Source: Armatimonadota bacterium
Lineage (GTDB): Bacteria > Armatimonadota > SYMT01
NCBI GenBank assembly: GCA_046292385.1
Contig: JBKBRF010000024.1
Location: 38,819 to 102,818 of the forward strand
DNA length: 64,000 nucleotides
Reading direction: 5' to 3'
A program made the translations under genes and the position numbers. The notes below the pieces were generated by a model, which ran no database searches, was not told where the DNA came from, and saw nothing but the letters and a program-made list of their open reading frames with translations. The first letter of the stretch is position 1, and every line of letters starts with the position of its first letter. Positions 52,446 through 64,000 of the stretch are shown here, one piece after another.

Positions 52446-52519
52446 GCTTGCACCTCCGGTCGGCGACGCTCGGGCAGGTCGCAAAGTGGCTCTCGTTCAC
52501 GGCGCGGGGCATGCCCGCG

Positions 52520-52810
52520 TCAGATGCGGTCCGGGAGCTGGTAGAGCTGCTCCCACCGGAGGCGGACCCCCATGGCGACCGCTTCCCAGGTCACTCCCAC
52601 GCGTTCCGCGGCCCCGCGCTCCCACGCGTGGCGGAGCTGGAGGTAATCGGAGATCGCCGTCGGATCGGCCCGGCTCCCCTCCTCCGCCAAGGTGGTAAAC
52701 AGCAGCACCGCCCGCCGCAGTACGCCGGGATCGGCGAGGCCGGTCACCGGGCTGGCCTCCGCTGCGAGCTCATCCAACGCCTCGCGAAATCCACTGCCAA
52801 GGCTCATCAT
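52520..52810 (-). CDS. Small helical protein, possibly DUF1889-like
   Basis: ALDEL......TGLADP....AV.LF..L...G...DP..I..Y.....W pattern; paralog at 45122. Confidence 0.6.
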   Translation of the reverse strand: MMSLGSGFREALDELAAEASPVTGLADPGVLRRAVLLFTTLAEEGSRADPTAISDYLQLRHAWERGAAERVGVTWEAVAMGVRLRWEQLYQLPDRI

Positions 52811-53175
52811 CCACACTCCGCCAACGCCACCCTCGTCCGCAGACGAAAACAGGCCAGGCGCCTGCTGCGCCTGGCCTGACAAAACGGTATGGGTCTCGCA
52901 CACCGGACGGCTTGAAGCGACAGCAACACTCTTCAGCCGCGGCTCGTTTCCGACGCCGCAGGCTGAATGGCTGCTGCCGATCTAGTCCTGGTGTACGAAG
53001 CTAATTGCGATCATCCGGCGGTAGCATAGCACAAGCTCGGACGGGCAGACAACGAAGTAACCGCCAGACGGACTTGGCGAGCGGGCCGGTTCCGCTCGGC
53101 GGTGATAGTCGGATAGGTCGGAGCGTGTTTCCGAACCTACTGGCAGCGCTTTATCCCCTACCCAGAAAACGGGTG

Positions 53176-53279
53176 GCTCTAAGAACGCCGAAAATCCCGT
53201 TTCGTATCGCGAGCACCACATGCGGATGGGAGAGGGGGGCGGCTTCTAAATGAGCCCACCCCGTTCAGTTCTGCGCGGC
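53176..53279. repeat. Dispersed conserved element, copy 2
   Basis: Direct-orientation homolog of 23644-23760. Confidence 0.9.
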
Positions 53280-53507
53280 GTGCTCGGGTTCACAGGTAGA
53301 GCTGGTAGCGGGACCGAGGAGAAGAACCGGCAGTGGTGTTGCCGCTCCCCCGCCCCCACCACCAAGTGCGGTAGCCGATCGGCCGTCGGTATCGTCCATA
53401 AGCTGCCGAGGGATCGCCCTCGTCGCTGCCGAAGCTGCCTTTACCCTACGCCGGACGTGGCGGGCGAGACTCACGGCTCGCTCGCCTGACTTGTCGAGGT
53501 CCAACTG

Positions 53508-55307
53508 ATGGAGAAGCCCCGAGACGCTGCGGTTCCAGAGCACCGTTCAGAGGGACCGTCACTACCCGACATTGGCACGAGCGAGCACACTCCACTCATC
53601 TCCGGTGTATCCGCAGATCGCGTGCTGGTCGAATCGGGCCACACGACTCCCGAGGAGGAGCAGACCACCCTCGACCTCCCCGGCCGGGAAGCCCTTCCCC
53701 CTCGGCGGCGGAAACGCCGCTCCGGCCGGCGCCACGGCAAGCCCGCGCCGCGCAAGCCGGAGTTCTCCCCCGAGCAGATCCTCGCCTGGGCCGACCACCA
53801 CTTCCAGGTCACGGGTCAGTGGCCGACTTCGCAATCCGGGCGAGTGGCGCTGGCGCCGAGCGAGACGTGGTGCGCCGTGGACCAGGCGCTCCGCGGCGGA
53901 CTGCGGGGGCTGTCCGGCGATCGCTCCCTGGCCCGGCTTCTGGCGGAGGAGCGCGGGGTCCGCAATCGCGCCAGCATCCCCCCGCTTACGGTCGAGCAGA
54001 TCCTGGCGTGGGCCGATGCCCATCACGCCCACACCGGGGAATGGCCGAAGGCCAACTCCGGCGCGATCCCCGAGGTCCCCGGCGAGACCTGGGCGAAGGT
54101 GAACGCCGCGCTCCTCAGCGGCTCGCGGGGACTGACGGGCGACTCCTCGCTGGCGCGGCTGCTACTCGAGAAACGGGATGTCGAGCATCATCTCGCCCGA
54201 CCGCGGCTGACGGTGGAGCAGATCCTCACGTGGATCGACGCCTTCTACGAACGGCATGGTCAGTGGCCGACCCACGCGTCCGGCGCGGTGGAAGACGCGC
54301 TCGGCGAGCGCTGGGACGCGCTGGATAACGCGCTTCGCGCCGGACTACGCGGCCTTCCGGGCGGCTCGTCGGTAGCGCGGCTACTGGCCGAGCATCGCGG
54401 CGTGCGGGTCGCCACCGGCATCCCACCACTCACCGAAGCCCAGATCCTCGCGTGGGCCGACGCCCACTTCGAGCGCCACGGCTGCTATCCCCGGGAAGAC
54501 TCCGGCCCGGTCGAGGACGCTTCGGGAGAGAACTGGAAGAACCTGGACGGGTCGCTCCGTATGGGACGGCGCGGGCTCGCAGGCGGCTCGTCTCTCCCGC
54601 TCCTGCTGACGGAGCACCGCAACTGTCCCTATCGTGCGCCCCGTCCGCCGCTGACGGAGGCGCAGATCCTGGCTTGGGCCGATGCGTTCCACGCCCGGCA
54701 CGGCCGGTGGCCTTCCCGGAACTCCGGGCCGATCGACGGGGCGCCCGGGGAGACCTGGGGCGGCGTGTGCCAGGCGCTCCGCAATGGACTACGGGGATTT
54801 CCCGGCGACTCGTCGCTGGCGAAGCTGTTACGTCGGAAGCGCGGTCACCGCCACTGCCACCTGCTACCGCGCCTGACCGAGGAGCAGGTCCTGGCCTGGG
54901 CCGATGCGTATCACGCAGAGCACGGGACATGGCCGCGGAGCGACTCGGGACCGATCGAGGGCGCTGGCGGCGACACCTGGCAGCAGGTCAACGCCGCCCT
55001 GCGGGTGGGGCTGCGCGGACTTCCCGGCGGCTCATCCCTCGCACAGCTTCTCCAGGAACGCCGGGGCGTTCGGAACCGGAAGCGTCTGCCGCCGTTCACG
55101 GAGGCGCAGATCCGGAAGTGGGCGCTGGCGCACCGGGCGCGGACCGGCAGATGGCCTACCTCGAGCTCTGGACCGGTCGTAGACGCCCCAGGGGAGACCT
55201 GGACTGCCGTGGAAGCCGCACTCCGGAACGGGCAGCGTGGCCTCGCCGGAGGGACTTCGCTCTCTCGTTTCGTGCGGGATCTGGACCGGCTGATTCCGGG
55301 AGACTGA
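53508..55307 (+). CDS. Tandem-repeat protein, 7 x 74 aa
   Basis: Consensus LTxxQILAWADAxxxxxGxWPxxxSGxxxxAPGETWxxVxxALRxGxRGLxGxSSLAxLLxExRG repeated seven times. Confidence 0.9.
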   Translation: MEKPRDAAVPEHRSEGPSLPDIGTSEHTPLISGVSADRVLVESGHTTPEEEQTTLDLPGREALPPRRRKRRSGRRHGKPAPRKPEFSPEQILAWADHHFQVTGQWPTSQSGRVALAPSETWCAVDQALRGGLRGLSGDRSLARLLAEERGVRNRASIPPLTVEQILAWADAHHAHTGEWPKANSGAIPEVPGETWAKVNAALLSGSRGLTGDSSLARLLLEKRDVEHHLARPRLTVEQILTWIDAFYERHGQWPTHASGAVEDALGERWDALDNALRAGLRGLPGGSSVARLLAEHRGVRVATGIPPLTEAQILAWADAHFERHGCYPREDSGPVEDASGENWKNLDGSLRMGRRGLAGGSSLPLLLTEHRNCPYRAPRPPLTEAQILAWADAFHARHGRWPSRNSGPIDGAPGETWGGVCQALRNGLRGFPGDSSLAKLLRRKRGHRHCHLLPRLTEEQVLAWADAYHAEHGTWPRSDSGPIEGAGGDTWQQVNAALRVGLRGLPGGSSLAQLLQERRGVRNRKRLPPFTEAQIRKWALAHRARTGRWPTSSSGPVVDAPGETWTAVEAALRNGQRGLAGGTSLSRFVRDLDRLIPGD

Positions 55308-55439
55308 GATCACCTGTGCGCATGTAGCACCGCTTCGTCGCGGAGAGGCGAGCGGCACAGGATTATCCACTATGGTCCCCGAACCATCCCTCGATCGCTC
55401 CACTAACATCAGCACGCCGCCGCCCCGATTCGGATTCTG

Positions 55440-58400
55440 ATGCTCGCCACACAGCCCTCCCTCACGCCACATCCCCACTACAACCGGCGCCTCTTCAGCG
55501 ACCACTATCTGGATCAGGTGCTCCCACGTACTCCCGAGTGGAAGCTGGGCAGGGACAGCGCCTCCGCGCTGCTGCCCCAGCTTCAGGCACTCTACATGGC
55601 GTTTGTTCCCAGCACCAACGAGGCTCAGACGGAACGAGAGCTCGTCCGTCCTGTTCTGGAGTTGCTGGGCCACCACTTCGAGGTTCAGCCCGCTCTCCAG
55701 ACCGCCGCCGGTACGAAGCGGCCCGACTACGTGCTGTACCGAGACGAGGAGGCGATTCGCGCTAATAAGAACGTGGTGCTCTCGGATACAGCCCTCCAGC
55801 ACGCCATAGCCGTGGCGGACGCTAAGCACTGGGACCGGCCTCTGGATCAGGCAATGCGGGTCGGGGTGGACCCGTTCACCAACAAGAACCCAGGCTACCA
55901 GATCACCTTCTACATGCAGCAGGGTGGTCTCCCCTGGGGCATCCTCACCAACGGGCGTGTCTGGCGCCTCTACCACCGCGATAGTGCCCATAAGCTGGAC
56001 GTCTTCTACGAGGTGGAACTCGCGGAGCTGCTGGAGCGCAATGACCCCGCGCAGCTGCAGTACTTCCTACGTTTTTTCGAGCGGCCCGCCTTTGAGGAAG
56101 GTCCGCTCTCACTACGGCGGCACCTTTCCGAGAGCGCCAGCTATGCCCGCAGCGTAGGCGAGGGGCTGCGCGAACAGGTGTATGAGGCGCTGCTCCATGT
56201 AGCCCAGGGCTTCCTAGACTTCCCCGACAACGCCCTCACGCCGGAGCCTGACACCCTCAAACGGATCTACGACAACGCGCTGATCCTGCTCTACCGGCTG
56301 CTCTTCGTCCTCTACGCCGAAGCCCGCGGCCTGTTGCCGCTAGAGGATAGCACCGCCTACCGCGACGACTACAGCCTGCATTCCATCAAGCGCTCGGTGG
56401 CGACATCCTTGAGGGTTGGGCGGCACCTGCTCCCCAGCACCCGTACGCTCTGGCCCAGGCTGACAGAGTTGTTCCGCATCATTGACGCCGGCAGCCCACC
56501 GCTCAAGGTCGCCACCTTCAACGGAGGGCTCTTCGACCCAAAGCGCCATGCCTTCCTAGAGCAGAACTCCGTCGGCGACGCGCACCTCCAGCAGGCGATC
56601 GACAAGCTTGCCCGAGTGGAAGGCGAGTTCATCGACTACCGTGACCTCTCGGAGCGACACCTGGGCAGTATCTACGAGGGGCTGCTTGAGTTTCACCTCC
56701 AACCTCTCGCGAGTGACATGTCGGAGGATCAGGCTGCAGCGAAGGAAGGCTGGACCGCCAAGCTCGTGACGGACAAAGGCGAGCGCAAAGCGACCGGCAG
56801 CTACTACACGCCGGGCTTCATCACCCGCTTCATGGTGGAGCAGGCCGTCGGTCCCGTCGTTGATGCGGCGCTGACGGAGGCGGCACCCAGAGGACCGGAC
56901 GCGCAGGCTCAGGCGGTCCTGAGCATCAACGTCCTGGACTGCTCCATGGGCAGTGGACATTTCCTCGTGGAGGCCGCGGACTACATTGCCCACCGGATGG
57001 TTGAAGCCGACCTCCTGCCGTCTGATGTACGTCATCCCGCCGGTAGCGGACTGAACGGGGGAGTGCCTACGCTCGACGAACTCGCCTACTGGAGACGACG
57101 GGTGGCCCAGAGTTGCATCTACGGGGTAGACCTAAACCCCCTCGCCGTGGATCTAGCGAAGCTCTCCATGTGGCTCGCCACGACCGCCAAGGATCGCCCC
57201 CTCTCCTTCCTTGACCACCACCTCCGTCCCGGTAACGCGCTGGTGGGCGCCCGCCTTTCGGAGCTGAGGGCCACGGGGAAAGCGGCGGCTAGAAAGGGCA
57301 GTACCGCCGCGCGGAAGGTCCAGAAGGCGGAAGAGGCCGGTCAGCTTAGCCTCGCTTCCGACAGCGCGTTCGTTCAGAGCATGAAACAGGCGGTCGACAA
57401 CCTCTGGCTCATCGAGGATAGCCCGGCTGAAACCATTGGTGACGTGAAAAGTCAGGAGGTCCTTTACGAAGAGGTCCGCAGAACCTTCGTCCAGCGCTAC
57501 ACGCAGATGCTGAATCTCGTCGCGGCACGCCCGTTCGGGCTGGAGGTGGATCAGGCGTTCTGGCGTACCCTATTGGACCATGCGGCGGGGCGGACGCTCG
57601 CACGGATGTCGAAGTTCGACACCTGGCTCAATCAGGCAGCGGCACTGGCGGAGAGACACCGCTTCTTCCACTGGGAGCTGGAGTTCCCGGAGGTCTTCTT
57701 CGACCGCTACGGCCGCCCCCTTGGCGACGAGGGCGGCTTCGACGTGGTGATCGGGAATCCACCCTACGTCCGTCAGGAGCGTCTCGCACCGCTCAAATCA
57801 TACTTGCAGGCGAAGTTCGCCTCCTTCCACGGGGTCGCCGACCTCTACCTCTACTTCTACGAGCAGGGGCTGAAGCTGCTCCGGGATGGCGGTCGGATGG
57901 CCTACATCTCATCCGGGACGTTCGCCAGGGCCAACTTCGCCGCGGCGTTCCGGAAGCAACTCCCCACCCTCGGCCGGGTTGAGGCGCTCGTGGACTTCGG
58001 CGAGAACCAGCCCTTTGAGGGGGCCGAGATGGTCCGGCCCTCTATCGTCGTACTGACACGGGGCGTGCAGGACGCGCCCTTTCGCAGCCTCTTCATCGCC
58101 GCAAAGGTGCCGGAGTCCCTCGACCAAGCCCTCGACCGAGAAGGAATCGACTGCGCCCCGGAGGCGCTGCAGCAACCCGAGTGGACCTTCCAGCCGGCTG
58201 GGAACACCCGTCTCCTCGCCAAGCTCCTGGCAGCGGGGCGGCCACTGGCCGACTCCGTGGGTGGTCGCATGTATCGCGGTCTTCTGACAGGTCTCACAGA
58301 AGCGTTTGTGCTGGATCAGGCGACGCGAGATCGGCTCATCACTCTCGACCCCGGCTGTAACGACCTAATCAAGCCCGCTCTGCGCGGAGAGGACCTGAGG

Positions 58401-59279
58401 CCCTGGTATCAGGAGAAGGAGGGCCGCTGGATGATCGTCGTCCCGTCGGGCTGGACTCGCAGGGCGTTTGGGGATGGTCTTGATGAACGCGACGCCTGGC
58501 AACGGGTGTCCAGCCGGTACCCGGGTCTCGCGGAACACCTCACCCCGTTCATCACCTCAGCTCGCAAGCGCCTAGATCAGGGGGAGTACTGGTGGGAGCT
58601 GCGTGCCTGTAGCTACTATGACGCCTTCGAGAGCCCGAAGATCCTCTGGCCGGACATCTCCAAGCTCCCGCGGCTCTCCTGGGATGACGACGGCCAGTAC
58701 ATCAATAACACCGGCTTCTTCCTGGTGCCGGATGGTCCCCACCTCCTGGGCCTGCTCCAATCGAGGGTGCTCTGGTTTGCGACCTCTCAGGTGTGCCAGC
58801 CTCTGCGTCTCCGAGCCGGACTCTGGCAGTACCGGCTCTTCACCCAGTTCATGGGGCGGCTCCCCATCCCCTCGGTATCCGGCGACGAGCGCGTCGCCAT
58901 TACGAATCTCACGACGCAGACCACGCAGCTTGCCCGCACGCGCTACGCGCTCCACCAGCAGGTGCGGCATCGCGTTCAGACTGATCTGGGCGAGCCGGAC
59001 AAGCCGCTGAACCAGAAGCTGACGGCGTGGTGGACGCTAACGTTCGGGGTCTTCAGGGCCGAGGTCCAGAAGGTCTACAAGCGGGACATCCCTCTCGCCG
59101 AACGCGGCGACTGGGAGACCTGGCTTGCCGATAGCCGCGCCGACCATGACCGGCTGACCGGAAAGATCGTCGCCCTGGAGACGGAACTCAACGAGCGCGT
59201 CTACCGCCTCTTCGACCTCACGGCGGACGAGATCCGGATCATCGAGGAAAGCACGAAGTATCCCTACGGCGGGGTATGA
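55440..59279 (+). CDS. Type IIG (Eco57I-like) restriction-modification enzyme
   Basis: N-terminal RPDY...ADAK nuclease, ILTNG..WRLY, FNGGLF, GSYYTP, LDCSMGSGHFL, GNPPY, TaqI-C-like TRD. Confidence 0.93.
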   Translation: MLATQPSLTPHPHYNRRLFSDHYLDQVLPRTPEWKLGRDSASALLPQLQALYMAFVPSTNEAQTERELVRPVLELLGHHFEVQPALQTAAGTKRPDYVLYRDEEAIRANKNVVLSDTALQHAIAVADAKHWDRPLDQAMRVGVDPFTNKNPGYQITFYMQQGGLPWGILTNGRVWRLYHRDSAHKLDVFYEVELAELLERNDPAQLQYFLRFFERPAFEEGPLSLRRHLSESASYARSVGEGLREQVYEALLHVAQGFLDFPDNALTPEPDTLKRIYDNALILLYRLLFVLYAEARGLLPLEDSTAYRDDYSLHSIKRSVATSLRVGRHLLPSTRTLWPRLTELFRIIDAGSPPLKVATFNGGLFDPKRHAFLEQNSVGDAHLQQAIDKLARVEGEFIDYRDLSERHLGSIYEGLLEFHLQPLASDMSEDQAAAKEGWTAKLVTDKGERKATGSYYTPGFITRFMVEQAVGPVVDAALTEAAPRGPDAQAQAVLSINVLDCSMGSGHFLVEAADYIAHRMVEADLLPSDVRHPAGSGLNGGVPTLDELAYWRRRVAQSCIYGVDLNPLAVDLAKLSMWLATTAKDRPLSFLDHHLRPGNALVGARLSELRATGKAAARKGSTAARKVQKAEEAGQLSLASDSAFVQSMKQAVDNLWLIEDSPAETIGDVKSQEVLYEEVRRTFVQRYTQMLNLVAARPFGLEVDQAFWRTLLDHAAGRTLARMSKFDTWLNQAAALAERHRFFHWELEFPEVFFDRYGRPLGDEGGFDVVIGNPPYVRQERLAPLKSYLQAKFASFHGVADLYLYFYEQGLKLLRDGGRMAYISSGTFARANFAAAFRKQLPTLGRVEALVDFGENQPFEGAEMVRPSIVVLTRGVQDAPFRSLFIAAKVPESLDQALDREGIDCAPEALQQPEWTFQPAGNTRLLAKLLAAGRPLADSVGGRMYRGLLTGLTEAFVLDQATRDRLITLDPGCNDLIKPALRGEDLRPWYQEKEGRWMIVVPSGWTRRAFGDGLDERDAWQRVSSRYPGLAEHLTPFITSARKRLDQGEYWWELRACSYYDAFESPKILWPDISKLPRLSWDDDGQYINNTGFFLVPDGPHLLGLLQSRVLWFATSQVCQPLRLRAGLWQYRLFTQFMGRLPIPSVSGDERVAITNLTTQTTQLARTRYALHQQVRHRVQTDLGEPDKPLNQKLTAWWTLTFGVFRAEVQKVYKRDIPLAERGDWETWLADSRADHDRLTGKIVALETELNERVYRLFDLTADEIRIIEESTKYPYGGV

Positions 59280-59625
59280 GGACGGGTGAGGCACCTCCGC
59301 CCCGCCCCGGGTATCGTGCCGACCAGCGTTTCTCCTGGAGCGGCGCGAGGGACACCGGCCTGGGCAGTTAAGAGTGTGCCCACCATCCCGAAGTCTGCCG
59401 CCCGCGCCCGTCACGACACCTGTGACGCCAGGTGCTAGACGCTAGACGCTTCGCCTGCCGTCACCGTCCCTCCGGCTACGGCGCCCTCTGTTAAGGGGCG
59501 CGTGTCCGTCCCGTTGCCGAACGGCTCCGTTCCCTACTGCCGGACATCGACCTGGACGATACTGTTCCCGACAGCGCTGCCGCTGCACGAGCGAAGCCCA
59601 TTTCGCCCTGCGGCAAATCCGCGGC

Positions 59626-60162
59626 CTACTCGTTGATCGACTGTTCCCACCAGGCATAAAGCAGATCAGCCCGGCGTGGGCGGTAGGTGGCTCGCGCTGC
59701 GATTCGCCGTAAAGCCTCCGCCACTTCCAGACCGGTAGGCTGTGCAGTGAGCTGCCACTCACGGAGTAGCTCCAACGTGCCACTCAATCGGGTCGCGGGG
59801 TGTCGCTCGGTTACAACACGGCGAGCTCGTCGGTCATCGGTGGCGAGGGTATAGCCGCGGCTCACCGCGAGGGCTGCTGCTTCTGCCTCCCCATCCGCTA
59901 GGCTCACGCCGAACTCGAGGAACAGTGCCTCCTCTGCCGAGCCCTCGAGCACCTCTTCAACCAGCACCCCGCGGTAGATTAGCGGCTCCAGGTCTACCAG
60001 TTCGCGCTCCTCGGAGTCAGGCACTGCGAGCCACTGCGCTTCGCCTCGGGCATGCGGAGCGACGGTAAAGTGTTGCGGGAGTTCCCGGAGGATCTCTTCG
60101 GCCCGGCCGGTGGCGGCGAGGTTCAGGGTACAGCACGCATCCAGGATTATGGTTTCGACCAT
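59626..60162 (-). CDS. PIN-domain protein (putative RNase toxin)
   Basis: IILDACC, LADGEAEAAALA, LATDDRRAR acidic PIN motifs. Confidence 0.85.
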   Translation of the reverse strand: MVETIILDACCTLNLAATGRAEEILRELPQHFTVAPHARGEAQWLAVPDSEERELVDLEPLIYRGVLVEEVLEGSAEEALFLEFGVSLADGEAEAAALAVSRGYTLATDDRRARRVVTERHPATRLSGTLELLREWQLTAQPTGLEVAEALRRIAARATYRPRRADLLYAWWEQSINE

Positions 60163-60181
60163 CTCTGCGGCATCTCCCGGA

Positions 60182-61411
60182 CTAGCTGACACCCCTCACC
60201 CCGTCGATGGGTTCCGCTAGGTCAAGCACCAGCTCCCCCGCTTCACCTTCTTCGGTTACCGCAGTCCGGGTGGTCTGTTCCTGCACGATGCGGCGGGCCT
60301 GCTGTCGGTCGGTGTGGAGGATTCCGACTAACTCCCCCTCGGTGAGCAGGCCGTCTTCGTAAGCGCGAGCTGCCAGACCCATGTAACGTCTCGGGAGCAT
60401 GGGCTCCTCGGACCCGGAACGTAGTCCGAGGATAGCCTGCGCCTCCTTCACCTGGAACTTGTTGTCCTTCAGGCCTCGCCACGTCCCGACCGGGATCAGG
60501 CGGAGGTCCTCAAGCCGCAACAGCAGGGCCTCGAATGAGACGCCATACAGATCCGCGAGGTTGATCAGGGCGGCTGGCGTGAGCTGGCCTACGGAGCGGA
60601 CGAGGTCGTAGAACCGCCGCCGGAGGCCCAGCGCGGGCATAAGGAACGCCTTCGCAAACGAGTCCGCAAACCGCTCCTTCCGCGAACTGCGGAGGTCGGT
60701 TCTCAGGATCGTGACCTCCGGCTCGTACCGGTGAACGAGGAAATGCGCGTACTCGTGACAGAGTGACCAGAGCCGGCGTCCGGCAGGGTGTTTCCGCTGG
60801 ATAGCGATGCAGCCACCCAGTTCTTCCGTATAGACGAACAGGCCGCTGATCCTGGACGGGAGTCCGATGTAGAAGATCCGTAGACCGACGTCGCCCTCGA
60901 GGAGGTCGCGAAGGTTGGTCACCGGACCATCCCCGAGGCCCAGCCGGTTGCGTTCCGCACTGGCAACCTCCTCTGCCGCTTCCACGGGATCACGACCGCT
61001 GATGTTGTAGAGAACGGGGTAGTTCCTCGGCAGGGGAGAACCACACTTCTCCTCCAGCTCCAAGTAGTCGTCGCTTAGGCGCTGGAGCAGCCGGGTAGCC
61101 TCCTCGAGTTCCGGATTGCTCTCGTATGCATCGACGGCAGCGCCCCGGAAGTGCGGGACGAAATCCCGGATCGGTGGACGGTGCCGGAGCAACTCGTGGA
61201 CATCGCGCCCGTAGAGCTGGGCCAGCCGGATCAGCTCGTGCGGCTGCACCGGGCGTTCGCCCTTCTCTATAGCGATGTAAGTAGGGCGGGACATGCCGAG
61301 CGCCGCCGCAGCATCCTGCTGCGTGAGCTTGCGGTCCTTCCGAGCCTCCTGGAGGCGCAGCCCGAGGACCCGCGGGTCGACGTCGGGATTCACGCGAAGA
61401 GGTTCGCTCAT
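60182..61411 (-). CDS. XRE HTH + ImmA/IrrE (COG2856) Zn-metallopeptidase fusion
   Basis: LQEARKDRKLTQQDAA...SRPTYIAIEKG; HEYAH; ERFADSFA.AFLMP. Confidence 0.93.
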   Translation of the reverse strand: MSEPLRVNPDVDPRVLGLRLQEARKDRKLTQQDAAAALGMSRPTYIAIEKGERPVQPHELIRLAQLYGRDVHELLRHRPPIRDFVPHFRGAAVDAYESNPELEEATRLLQRLSDDYLELEEKCGSPLPRNYPVLYNISGRDPVEAAEEVASAERNRLGLGDGPVTNLRDLLEGDVGLRIFYIGLPSRISGLFVYTEELGGCIAIQRKHPAGRRLWSLCHEYAHFLVHRYEPEVTILRTDLRSSRKERFADSFAKAFLMPALGLRRRFYDLVRSVGQLTPAALINLADLYGVSFEALLLRLEDLRLIPVGTWRGLKDNKFQVKEAQAILGLRSGSEEPMLPRRYMGLAARAYEDGLLTEGELVGILHTDRQQARRIVQEQTTRTAVTEEGEAGELVLDLAEPIDGVRGVS

Positions 61412-61414
61412 ATC

Positions 61415-62896
61415 TCAGACCGCCTGGCCGTTCGGGTCATAGAGCGGCAGCATCGGCATCTCGGGCACGTCGGGGCGCACCCGGCGTCGGTCACCGATCT
61501 CGGTAGCATCAGGAAACTCCGCGCACATCGGGAACAGGTTCCACTCCGCCACATATCTCCTGAGCAGTTCCAGCAGTTCGTTCTGGACGGCCGCTTCATC
61601 CCTACCTACCACCTTCGCGACGTAGCGCTTGGTCATCTCCAACCCTGGATAGCTCCGAGTCAATACCGACCAGGGGTGCCCCGAGGTCAGGGCCTTACGG
61701 ATGCGCTCCCGCTGGCTCAGCATGGCATCCAGCGCTTCTCGGCTCTCTCGGGGGATGGTGGTGTGTGGCACGGTCACGTCATAGCGATAGAGGTCGTTGT
61801 GATCAAAGGGGGCCAGCCCGGAGGCGTAGAGGGACTGACGGCGCAGGATGCAGGGCGCACACTTCCCGCACAGGGGAGTCAGCTGGACGCGCTGCGGGAA
61901 CCGATCGCAGGAAACGGTAGCACGGATCGACTGCTCCAGACCCGCCCGCTGGATCGAAGCACACATCTCCGCCTTCGACTTGAGGAGGTACGGGTTCCGG
62001 ATCTGGAACGGCTCGCCGAAGACCAGCGAGAGAAAGGCGCCCATGTTGTGTAGCAAGCTCGGATGCACCCCCTGGGGGGTTTCCCAAGGAAACGCACCAA
62101 CCCTTAGCGGGAGGCACAGGGAAGCGAGACCGTTCTCGCACTGGTAGAGTTCCATAGCGCCGTCCGCATGCGCGGCAATCGCGCCGAGCGTCTGGAACAC
62201 GAAGGAACGGCTGCGATGCAGTCCCGGCCCACGGATCGAGCGCGACAACTCCAGCCGTAGTTCCGTAGGGTGGATGCGCCCTCGGAACCGGCGCTCGAGC
62301 GCGGCACAGACCTCGTGCTGAATGCCGGCGACGCGGTCCGCGGTCACCACTGAGACCAGTCCGAACCGATCGGTGACGTTCTCCTGGGCCAAGTCACAAG
62401 TGCCGGCGAAGGAGTCCAGCCCGCCGCTCAGCAGAACGAACCGCGAAGGAGCAGTCCCCACCTCAAGAAGGCAACCCTGGGCACTCGGGCGAGCAGAAAC
62501 TGGATCCGTGCGGCGCGACCAGTGGAAGCACCACTCATCCGTGGTAAGCGAGCCGAGCAGCCCACTGAGTCGGTCCTGGACCCACGGCTCGCGCCAGAAG
62601 TCGAGGTCATAGACCGGCAGGTTGATGGCAAGGTGTCTCGACCAGCCGTAGCCGTCACGATCCGGGTGCCGGGGCGACAGGCGGTCGGCGGCATGAACCG
62701 CCTTGATGACCTGGAGGAGATCCAAGAGCCGGTGCCGCAGTCCAATCCAAGAGCCAGCGCCTCTGGTCACGTTGAACTGCACGCGAAACATCAGGCCTTC
62801 CTTCAGACCGTCGCGCGGTCCCAGTCGCATCCCATGGAGCAGGCCGTTAGGCGCGATGGTGAAGTTGTAGTGAAACACTCGCGCCTTCGTCGGCAT
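61415..62896 (-). CDS. QueC-family PP-loop protein of the QatC type
   Basis: DLL.....V.AADR...R...GWSR.L...LPV....FW N-terminal extension, LSGGLDS, RSRSF, ENG..SL.LPL, NPY..KSK.EM, TVSC...CGKCAPCILRR. Confidence 0.85.
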   Translation of the reverse strand: MPTKARVFHYNFTIAPNGLLHGMRLGPRDGLKEGLMFRVQFNVTRGAGSWIGLRHRLLDLLQVIKAVHAADRLSPRHPDRDGYGWSRHLAINLPVYDLDFWREPWVQDRLSGLLGSLTTDEWCFHWSRRTDPVSARPSAQGCLLEVGTAPSRFVLLSGGLDSFAGTCDLAQENVTDRFGLVSVVTADRVAGIQHEVCAALERRFRGRIHPTELRLELSRSIRGPGLHRSRSFVFQTLGAIAAHADGAMELYQCENGLASLCLPLRVGAFPWETPQGVHPSLLHNMGAFLSLVFGEPFQIRNPYLLKSKAEMCASIQRAGLEQSIRATVSCDRFPQRVQLTPLCGKCAPCILRRQSLYASGLAPFDHNDLYRYDVTVPHTTIPRESREALDAMLSQRERIRKALTSGHPWSVLTRSYPGLEMTKRYVAKVVGRDEAAVQNELLELLRRYVAEWNLFPMCAEFPDATEIGDRRRVRPDVPEMPMLPLYDPNGQAV

Positions 62897-63557
62897 TGTG
62901 ACCCTCCGGATCTACTTCAAGGCGCAGCACAGGGATCGGCACGTTCATCAACTCAGCGGTGGTAGCCGCTGACCGGGGAGGTCGTGCCCGCATAGAGCTA
63001 CCCGTCGGATCCCGACTGATGCTGGCGATCACATCAGCATCAGCGCCCTGGAGGCGTTCTCGCAGACCGTCTTCCAGGTGAAGGATCCGTTCCACCCGGT
63101 CTGCGGGGTCGCCGCACGGTAGCTTGGCCTCGATCCGACTGAGAAAGAGCGCGTTCACCTGCGCACTGCACCAGTCCACATACAGATCGTCCATGGTGCG
63201 AGGGGAAGCTCCATCCTGCTGGAGCCGCGCCCACTCCCGCACCACCACCTCGACTTCGGAGGCAGCGATCGGGTCCCTTCCCTCTCGTAGACCCTGGCGC
63301 CGGTGGTCTTGCAGAGCCAGTTCTAGCTCGTCCGGGGAGCAGGGCATCACGAGACGGCCCGCACCAGCACCGACTCCCGCCACTCGGGCGAGCTTAGCGA
63401 GGCCGACCGGTCCACCCCGTTGGCGGATCTGCTTGCGTAGACACCGCGTCATCCCGGGGACCAAGAACTGGTCGTCGGCTCCCCGTCTCGCCGGTTCCAC
63501 GAGATCGCCAAAAAGCCGGCCGGGGCCTTCGGTAAAGTACGTGTCCTCGTTTCCCAT
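62847..63557 (-). CDS. Hypothetical protein, QatB-like (Met-Gly N-terminus)
   Basis: First gene upstream of the QatC-like gene; begins MGNEDTYF; LRKQIRQRGG..G-rich segment then helical region; promoter position supports the 63557 start. Confidence 0.55.
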   Translation of the reverse strand: MGNEDTYFTEGPGRLFGDLVEPARRGADDQFLVPGMTRCLRKQIRQRGGPVGLAKLARVAGVGAGAGRLVMPCSPDELELALQDHRRQGLREGRDPIAASEVEVVVREWARLQQDGASPRTMDDLYVDWCSAQVNALFLSRIEAKLPCGDPADRVERILHLEDGLRERLQGADADVIASISRDPTGSSMRARPPRSAATTAELMNVPIPVLRLEVDPEGHNADEGASVSLQLHHRA

Positions 63558-63566
63558 GTTCAATCC

Positions 63567-63595
63567 ATTATGGCCGGCGCTCTTTACAACGTCAA
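63567..63595 (-). promoter_or_regulatory. Sigma70-type promoter for the four-gene operon
   Basis: TTGACG-N17-CATAAT ending 9 nt before ATG 63557. Confidence 0.75.
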
Positions 63596-63912
63596 CGCTT
63601 TTCTTGAAAAGCCTGCGAACTATGTAAAACTCACGCTGGGTATAGTTGTACCGGCTGCACGGGATGCGGACGTCAGATATGTGTGTCGAGCGGGGCCAGC
63701 ACGCCACGCCTAAAGCTGGGATCCCCCGACCGAGCCACTCAAGGTCGCGTGGACGACCGCCGAAACTAGTGGCACGAGCTTCTAACGAGGAGAGTAGAGG
63801 CGTTCGGTCGTTTTATGACCGACCGAACGGCCGGTTCGACGTCGAACTGCACTGAGCCACCGAAAGCCTGCTCTCGCGGGGAGCTACCATCAGAAGGTGT
63901 GTAAACGGTGAA

Positions 63913-63982
63913 GGCGGTGAACCTTCCTTCTAGAGACTAGAAGCAGCCGAGGGCCAACTCGGCAAAGGAAGGAAACACCGCC
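63913..63982 (+). promoter_or_regulatory. Structured 5' UTR occluding the SD of a gene starting at 63983
   Basis: GGCGGTG/CACCGCC and CCTTCCTT/AAGGAAGG pairings enclose internal hairpins; ATG follows immediately. Confidence 0.55.
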
Positions 63983-64000
63983 ATGAAAGAGATTACCGCG

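Follow-up and report, generated by a model that had tools for sequence, protein, structure and literature searches.

We analysed a 64,000-nucleotide (nt) stretch of contig JBKBRF010000024.1 from an Armatimonadota bacterium, hereafter the window, in which an open reading frame (ORF) on the plus strand (53508..55307) encodes a 599-amino-acid (aa) protein with seven tandem repeats, upstream of a Type IIG-like restriction-methylase gene. A sequence-only reading of this DNA had described seven 74-aa repeats on a constant scaffold, and this was borne out: the glutamine of the QIL.W motif falls at aa 90, 164, 238, 312, 386, 460, and 534, giving an exact 74-aa spacing, and every scaffold motif that had been quoted is present in the protein. 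Repeats 1 to 6 span aa 85-158 (53760..53981), 159-232 (53982..54203), 233-306 (54204..54425), 307-380 (54426..54647), 381-454 (54648..54869), and 455-528 (54870..55091), with the variable patches QTSQACQRGL, EKANPAALSS, QTHAEDNRAL, CREDEKGRMR, RSRNDGQRNL, and TRSDEQARVL, respectively, all on the plus strand; repeat 7 (aa 529-599; 55092..55304, same strand; patch RTSSVTARNQ) is 71 aa long and has no trailing linker. The core of repeat 5 is basic, with a pI of 10.7. Columns 23-25 of the unit, the variable triplets after the W-P pair, and columns 38-42, the five residues that follow W37, agree exactly with what the earlier reading had quoted.

The repeats are preceded by an N-terminal tail (aa 1-84; 53508..53759, plus strand) of pI 9.95 that is predicted to be disordered, the per-residue confidence (pLDDT) of a full-length AlphaFold2 model being below 50 at residues 1-63 and 65-73. 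Immediately N-terminal to repeat 1, the tail carries the basic tract RRRKRRSGRRHGKPAPRKP, which is weakly shared with the homologues P0090 and P0097. The database cluster representative of the protein uses a GTG start at codon 39 and is 561 aa long. Five of the six linkers between repeats are net basic (+2 to +5) and one is neutral (0), in keeping with the basic linkers described earlier. No family was assigned to the protein from Pfam, NCBIfam, or PADLOC. The single Pfam row, an HD domain at 18.7 bits (cut-off 22) with no passing stretches, is regarded as spurious, as are the HD rows on relatives of the protein, which likewise have no passing stretches; no catalytic domain was found, in agreement with the earlier reading.

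Pairwise identity among the seven repeats averages 51% (42-62%) at the protein level and 58% at the DNA level, and Tandem Repeats Finder reported no 222-nt period in the gene, from which we conclude that the repeats are old rather than the product of recent duplication. In a six-frame translation of the 7.04-Mb source genome, a profile built from the seven units scored the array ORF at 5e-252 and found no second array copy.

Distribution and variation of the repeat family

There are at least 2581 near-length homologues of the array protein, the best non-self matches being 50-58% identical, and the named sources of these homologues are Gemmataceae, Isosphaerales, Pirellulales, Phycisphaerae, and one Verrucomicrobia record. 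When a single-repeat profile was searched against 1.84 billion cluster representatives, it matched 3505 clusters (50% identity) at E<=1e-3, and 2811 at E<=1e-10. Judged by these matches, the repeat family is large, mainly from Planctomycetota, and without a Pfam or NCBIfam model. No earlier description of the 74-aa repeat was found in the full-text literature searched, which holds few subscription journals and no supplements. Repeat number, which the sequence-only reading had marked as a property to compare among homologues, ranges from 6 to 13 in 120 of them, and 725 of 999 inter-repeat spacings are exactly 74 aa. The stand-alone form is common: of the 120 best near-length homologues, there are 113 in which the stretch N-terminal to repeat 1 is shorter than 170 aa.

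Within the phylum of the source organism, the array gene was found in 9 of 401 sampled genomes, the source genome counted, and in 3 of the 39 genomes of one family; in most of the nine genomes, matches are confined to one gene or one contig stretch. Among 2.9 million viral contigs (IMG/VR) there are just two array loci. One of these, L138:504-10673, has a 1035-aa gene that joins Mrr_cat_2, helicase, and array near a phage-type integrase and a DnaB-like helicase, which suggests that this gene is carried on an integrated mobile element. A phage origin of the family was considered and set aside, given only these two loci, one of which is the fused gene beside an integrase.

Variation within the repeat is concentrated at a small number of positions. 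In a set of 1586 units in register, taken from 360 proteins, ten core columns (20, 23, 24, 25, 30, 38, 42, 45, 46, and 48) have an entropy above 3.2 bits, as do linker columns 70-72. While W10, P22, W37, L44, and R49 are invariant in this set because they were used as the register filter, G19, W21, G27, and G47 are each more than 90% conserved. Among repeat pairs that are 70-95% identical (n=1759), the ten variable columns differ in 61% of comparisons, as against 20% for the other core columns. Taken together, the entropy and pair-difference data describe an array of modules that share a constant scaffold and differ in a hypervariable patch, and the concentration of variation at set positions that had been noticed in the window protein is a property of the family and not of this protein alone. 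Family-wide, the patch carries a net charge of +1.4, the remaining core -0.76, and the linker +2.4; the patch is composed of 14% R, 8% K, 29% S/T/N/Q, and 8% D and E combined.

AlphaFold2 models were obtained for repeats 2-3 (126-sequence alignment; pLDDT 87, predicted template-modelling score (pTM) 0.50) and for the full-length protein (pLDDT 86.5, pTM 0.56, residues 1-73 disordered). Each unit is predicted to consist of three helices, at unit residues 4-18, 37-46, and 57-64. The spacing of columns 38, 42, 45, and 46 (i, i+4, i+7, i+8) would place them on one face of helix 2.

Fusions to nuclease-motor bodies and exchange of arrays

In a set of longer homologues, the array is part of a multidomain protein. 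We counted domains by hand in the 120 longer homologues that were listed, 110 of which contain a helicase domain (ResIII, DEAD, or Helicase_C) and 66 of which additionally contain Mrr_cat_2; the methylase families PF02384, PF07669, and PF20473 (N6_Mtase, Eco57I, and MmeI_Mtase) occur in none of them. Without exception, the array lies at the C-terminal end (median 649 aa on its N-terminal side and 3 aa on its C-terminal side), and the number of repeats in these fused forms peaks sharply at 7 and 8 (88 of 120). A subfamily that includes P0126, P0128, and P0132 has Mrr-helicase bodies and a strict 73-aa period, with up to 14 repeats.

The body of the Mrr-bearing forms is of a kind known from Type ISP restriction enzymes. 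Residues 10-612 of the fused homologue P0124 align with residues 24-665 of LlaBIII (4XQK; 6e-87), P0124 also aligns with LlaGI (2e-64), and its N-terminal part covers positions 7-653 of the 1646 positions of the PADLOC REase_MTase_IIG model (E 2e-141). Based on these alignments, the array appears to replace the methylase and recognition half of such enzymes in the Mrr-bearing forms. A second fused group, represented by P0133, has a helicase but lacks the Mrr nuclease, and does not match a Type ISP-like model in PADLOC. The Mrr nuclease and superfamily 2 (SF2) motor of the fused family members are thus homologous to those of Type ISP enzymes, whereas the 120 listed fused homologues have neither a methylase nor a classical recognition domain and bear the array in that place, and the window protein has neither nuclease nor motor, nor does its source genome have a gene of this kind. 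The relative with which LlaBIII is compared is reportedly LlaGI, and the recognition domains and target sites of the two are said to differ. A further likeness to the Type ISP enzymes is that near-identical fused bodies bear unrelated C-terminal modules. For LlaBIII, a passage of one paper gives over 95% homology with a relative in the first three domains (PMC3553950).

Such a pattern is seen among the fused homologues themselves. In the 25 closest pairs, the N-terminal parts are 90-97% identical by BLAST (83-97% over global alignment), and in 22 of these pairs the arrays are just 41-60% identical, often with a different number of repeats; the arrays of the other three pairs are 82-86% identical. 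P0177 and P0231 align near-perfectly as far as the residues that precede repeat 1; within that repeat the alignment breaks down. Clean diagonals run through the arrays of P0147/P0231 and P0126/P0132, and inherited arrays therefore exist as well. When repeats were matched without regard to order, best-match repeat identity was below 0.70 in 24 of 30 pairs whose N-termini are at least 90% identical, with a background median of 0.55. In 13 fused proteins with seven repeats each, the identity of repeat i to repeat j is 0.51-0.58 everywhere, with no positional orthology, and patch identity is 0.09-0.15 whether or not the indices match, while the helicase parts are 60-90% identical or more. The metagenome loci provided one informative close pair, L112/L116, whose arrays are 96% identical over most of their length and differ at the 3' end. 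At the level of predicted proteins, these comparisons show that arrays are swapped between near-identical nuclease-motor bodies, as specificity modules would be. It is whole arrays that differ, not single sites; a Pfam scan of six window ORFs, which was not a dedicated test for diversity-generating retroelements, found no reverse transcriptase.

A further arrangement is found at L090:3-7910, where an ORF with three helicase-associated (HA) units, cut by the contig end, is followed by a nine-repeat Mrr-helicase-array gene and then by a second array gene, which has four repeats and a 156-aa N-terminus of no assigned family. Downstream of the latter lie an ORF without an assigned family and a BglII-like endonuclease.

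Comparison with known repeats and genomic context

The sequence-only reading had likened the repeats loosely to HA (PF03457) or HNH-associated helical repeats. Several features support a likeness to HA arrays, whose units are of similar size (~65-75 aa) with three predicted helices, form tandem arrays on the C-terminal side of SF2 helicases that carry an Mrr or another nuclease, and are also known in a stand-alone form, a 606-aa open frame with nine HA units in the Bacteroidota genome G401 (L128, C3:65963-67735). By eye, the two also share helix 1, a G-x-aromatic-P motif, and a G-x-x-W that opens helix 2. The HA period is ~68 aa, however, as opposed to 74 aa here, where the conserved residues are W10, W21-P22, W37, and R49. 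The two kinds of unit can occur side by side: P0191 has a true HA domain (aa 783-842) directly before its first 74-aa repeat at aa 850, and the ORF with three HA units at L090 lies upstream of a fused array gene. A passage of a preprint states that HA domains were earlier shown to bind DNA and cites a nuclear magnetic resonance study whose title indicates DNA binding. The solved HA domain 2KTA (HA profile match 1.5e-8) is not among the listed two-repeat matches from Foldseek or VIA-align, the best of which has a Z of 3.8, although small helical domains score low in any case. A scan of 201 genomes of the phylum for HA (PF03457) found none, but control genomes were likewise blank, and the scan is uninformative. 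The suggested likeness to HA thus stands at the level of architecture, namely the position C-terminal to SF2 helicases and the company of HA units in P0191 and L090, and is not supported at the level of sequence membership.

The HNH_repeat family (PF18780) similarly comprises short helical repeats arrayed on nucleases, and HNH_repeat clusters (template-modelling score (TM) by row 0.43-0.54) as well as HA clusters are among the low-TM structural neighbours of the array protein in the ESM Atlas; these values lie below the bar for naming a family and serve as a lead only. There is no Pfam match to HNH_repeat, and the low TM comes with no alignment statistics for homology. Within the core, the string L-P-G-G-S-S-L-A resembles the consensus of a helix-hairpin-helix (HhH) by eye, but no HhH model was matched by 87 family repeats in Pfam at E<=1, and this candidate was rejected; at that threshold the 87 repeats matched just five families, none of them HA, HNH_repeat, or HhH. 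Like TALE, PPR, and PUF proteins, the array consists of fixed-length tandem helical repeats that vary at few positions on a conserved scaffold. It differs in having about ten variable columns per 74-aa unit, where TALE and PPR repeats have one to three, and in a scaffold that is only ~62% identical between units, and the structural matches to PPR10 (E 0.065, TM 0.11) and to the TALE PthXo1 (E 1.1) are not significant. The array protein has no match to HsdS-type specificity-subunit or recognition-domain models in Pfam, NCBIfam, or PADLOC, and a sequence-profile search of the Protein Data Bank (PDB) gave no matches at E<=10.

To describe the surroundings of array genes elsewhere, we annotated 84 and 79 neighbouring ORFs at 11 genome loci and 133 of 173 ORFs at metagenome loci, the 40 ORFs shorter than 125 aa at the latter being dropped; as the calls follow a simple longest-ORF rule and the DNA is rich in GC, some of them may be wrong. 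No partner gene is conserved across the annotated loci. The neighbours include metabolic and envelope genes, PIN, HigB/Gp49, HicB, Cas4, NYN, transposases, IS1, LexA, ParB-like, and BTAD-STAND genes. At L042:5760-10997, the array gene begins 7 nt downstream of a BTAD-AAA_22-TPR STAND-like gene, and BTAD-bearing genes, mostly with AAA or NB-ARC, occur at 4 of the 11 genome loci (L040, L042, L043, and L044), three of which come from genome G246. In seven loci (L052, L057, L090, L101, L102, L114, and L121), array genes are in tandem or right after a fused gene. Of 74 stand-alone loci, three have a Type IIG-like gene in their flanking DNA, namely the window, L039, and L122. L039, from genome G010, has an MmeI-type Type IIG gene with the array gene ~210 nt downstream on the same strand, and L122 has an MmeI-like fragment, closely related to the L039 gene, 2.8 kb from the array gene. 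An in-frame TGA divides the array at L039:6174-7745, on the minus strand, into two ORFs, one of 340 and one of 159 aa; the gene may be a pseudogene, or the stop may reflect a sequencing error.

In the window, a Type IIG-like gene lies directly downstream of the array gene, as the earlier reading had stated: it begins 132 nt away on the same strand (55440..59279) and encodes a 1279-aa protein that matches Eco57I (4e-35) and N6_Mtase in Pfam and DrmMI (1e-107) in PADLOC. Because REase_MTase_IIG models align to aa 15-421 and aa 739-1272, and so span the protein from its N-terminal part to its C-terminal end, the enzyme appears complete. The spacer (55308..55439) contains no terminator-like or sigma-70-like site that we could find. 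Beyond the Type IIG gene, four overlapping genes on the minus strand (59626-63707) reach the contig end: a 286-aa ORF of no family, a QatC-like gene (NCBIfam 4e-47, below the cut-off; PADLOC QatC 2e-40), a gene encoding HTH_3 and Peptidase_M78 domains (PADLOC RmrA/CapP-like), and a 188-aa ORF with a weak PDC-S70 match. No TatD-like QatD gene is present in the window, and the four genes would thus seem to form a Qat-like defence operon that is atypical or truncated. Judged by these matches, the stretch from the Type IIG gene to the contig end is a defence island with the array gene at its edge. The GC content of the array gene is 0.71, close to that of the host (0.689 genome-wide), versus 0.64 for the Type IIG gene. 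Along the DNA, GC content drops in the region 55000-64000: upstream values are 0.67-0.71, whereas the Type IIG gene and everything after it, as far as the contig end, have 0.62-0.65, which fits a horizontally acquired island that starts after the array gene. On its other side, the array gene is separated from a divergent GGDEF gene by ~1 kb without a convincing gene (52485-53507), which has no Rfam or tRNA match and contains two strong terminator-like hairpins on the minus strand (52878-52850 and 52905-52885).

A putative recognition module and its alternatives

From the anatomy, distribution, fusions, hypervariable columns, and exchange of arrays described above we infer the nature of the ligand, the function of the patch, and any part that the array plays in defence. 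The reading we prefer, to which we give about an even chance, is that the array is an exchangeable recognition module, most likely for DNA, that acts in cis on Type ISP-like nuclease motors and in trans as a free-standing protein. The window protein would then be a free-standing chain of seven three-helix domains of ~64 aa each, joined by basic linkers of ~10 aa, and its array would correspond to the fast-diverging target-recognition module of the family, which many relatives carry fused C-terminally to an SF2 helicase motor and which, in the Mrr-bearing relatives, would sit on a body of the Type ISP kind in place of the methylase and target-recognition domain. Each domain would present about ten hypervariable, mostly basic or polar positions in the loop after the W-P pair, on one face of helix 2, and in the G-x-R turn. 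The ligand is probably a nucleic acid, most likely DNA, as suggested by the architecture and by the many basic and polar residues in the variable patch; the linkers and the tail, which are basic too, may add affinity for the backbone. In the source genome, where the array stands alone at the edge of the defence island, it would probably serve as a separate DNA-binding or specificity protein.

A number of observations weigh against this reading. Five of the seven repeat cores in the window protein are net acidic (-2 to -4), and its overall pI of 9.6 is due to the tail and linkers. The source genome contains no Mrr-helicase body at E<1e-5, and the neighbourhoods of stand-alone arrays are heterogeneous, with many plain metabolic genes. 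The close pairs on which array exchange is based are predicted proteins from metagenome assemblies, in which chimeric assembly at the conserved body is possible. No Pfam family, the HA model (PF03457) included, matched any of the seven window repeats at E<=10, and neither HA nor HNH_repeat matched any of the 87 family repeats in Pfam at E<=1, the same HA library recovering P0191 (2.4e-13) and L090:3-659 (1.3e-53) as positive cases; hhalign comparison of the 87 repeats with HA alignments gave probabilities of 0.2% (3 units) and 0.08% (12 units), although alignments as small as these may miss a very remote relation. Structural prediction, to which the earlier reading had pointed, produced the three-helix unit but no significant fold match. 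Foldseek found nothing in the PDB at E<=0.001 (best E 0.58 with the two-repeat model, 0.065 with the full-length one), and the best match among viral predicted structures (BFVD) had an E of 0.07. VIA-align over 48,161 chains gave at best a Z of 3.8, to aa 616-668 of SauUSI, followed by the Slx4 CCD (Z 3.4-3.6) and AraC/TetR helix-turn-helix domains, all with Z below 4, and at best 3.2 on the 143 chains from Foldseek. The linkers, moreover, have a pLDDT below 50 in the two-repeat model, as opposed to 74-91 in the full model, and the repeats may either be packed rigidly or be strung loosely like beads.

The main rival to DNA recognition is that the array senses proteins, in the manner of the TPR, LRR, or WD40 arrays of STAND/NLR immune proteins, with the patch recognising phage or other foreign proteins. 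Hypervariable repeat arrays on a conserved effector body are typical of immune sensors (NLR, Avs-type); the acidic repeat cores, the weak structural match to the Slx4 CCD, which is a protein-docking helical domain, and the STAND-like gene 7 nt upstream of the array at L042, along with the other BTAD genes, can be read in the same way. We nevertheless consider a protein sensor unlikely: among the fused forms, those matching Type ISP enzymes carry the array in the position of the DNA-recognition half, the patch has many R, K, S, T, N, and Q residues but few D and E, the linkers are basic, and true HA domains flank the arrays in P0191 and L090. The sequence-only reading had instead proposed that the array acts with the co-oriented restriction-modification enzyme, for example as a trans-acting DNA-targeting or regulatory subunit made from the same transcript. 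Adjacency on the same strand, without a terminator-like site between the two genes, favours this, as do the arrangements at L039 and L122 and the number of Type IIG-like genes near stand-alone arrays, three in ~397 kb of flanking DNA versus ~0.17 expected at three loci per 7.04-Mb genome; the excess is suggestive at best, as the window itself prompted the question. Only three stand-alone loci show the association, L039 and L122 share a related gene and so add one or two independent cases beyond the window, the array in G010 is interrupted by a stop codon, and gene order and Type IIG family differ from case to case. The listed fused homologues lack the methylase families altogether, the two window genes differ in GC content, and, because Type IIG models align to the C-terminal end of the window enzyme, it should need no extra specificity subunit. 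A partnership of this kind thus seems doubtful to us.

Array exchange also invites the idea that the window gene is a spare cassette or a leftover, either a recombination donor for fused genes carried by other members of the population or an array that has lost its enzyme, and in both cases doing little by itself in this genome. The exchange of arrays between bodies is clear, the seven loci given above have array genes side by side or following a fused gene, and the source genome has no fused gene or second copy; the latter, however, means that a donor would have no local target. The 599-aa ORF is intact, scaffold residues are kept in all seven repeats, and stand-alone arrays dominate the best near-length homologues, all of which makes such a cassette improbable. 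A decayed fusion was likewise rejected: a tblastn search for remnants of a helicase upstream, in a 1.5-kb database, gave at best an E of 0.014, and this on the opposite strand. The protein might also be a general DNA-binding, nucleoid-associated, or regulatory protein unrelated to defence, for which adjacency to the island would be coincidental. Its tail and linkers are basic, its GC content is host-like, many neighbourhoods consist of ordinary metabolic or envelope genes, and array genes lie beside a LexA gene (L047) and a ParB-like gene (L045), but patchy presence within the phylum and a single copy are unlike a core chromatin protein, and the extreme divergence of arrays and their fusion to restriction-type motors point to conflict biology, so that we regard this explanation as very improbable.

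Returning to an exchangeable recognition array for DNA, this reading, if true, would provide the first functional frame for a family of at least 3505 clusters. It would mean that there are restriction-like helicase-nucleases that carry a fast-changing repeat array in place of the Type ISP methylase and recognition half, and would raise the question of how such enzymes, lacking a methylase, discriminate between foreign DNA and their own. Repeats of fixed length that bear a defined patch would, in addition, offer a scaffold for readable, and later engineerable, recognition rules. A more specific version, which echoes the per-repeat code raised in the sequence-only reading and which we regard as a long shot, is that the 74-aa units form a programmable recognition system, in which each domain would read a short DNA element or modification through its ten positions, arrays of 7-8 units would retarget methylase-less Type ISP-like motors by cassette exchange, and free-standing arrays would be the same readers acting in trans. 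Were this so, the units would represent a bacterial class of modular DNA-reading repeats, comparable in principle to TALEs, and a new route by which restriction-type enzymes may change their specificity.

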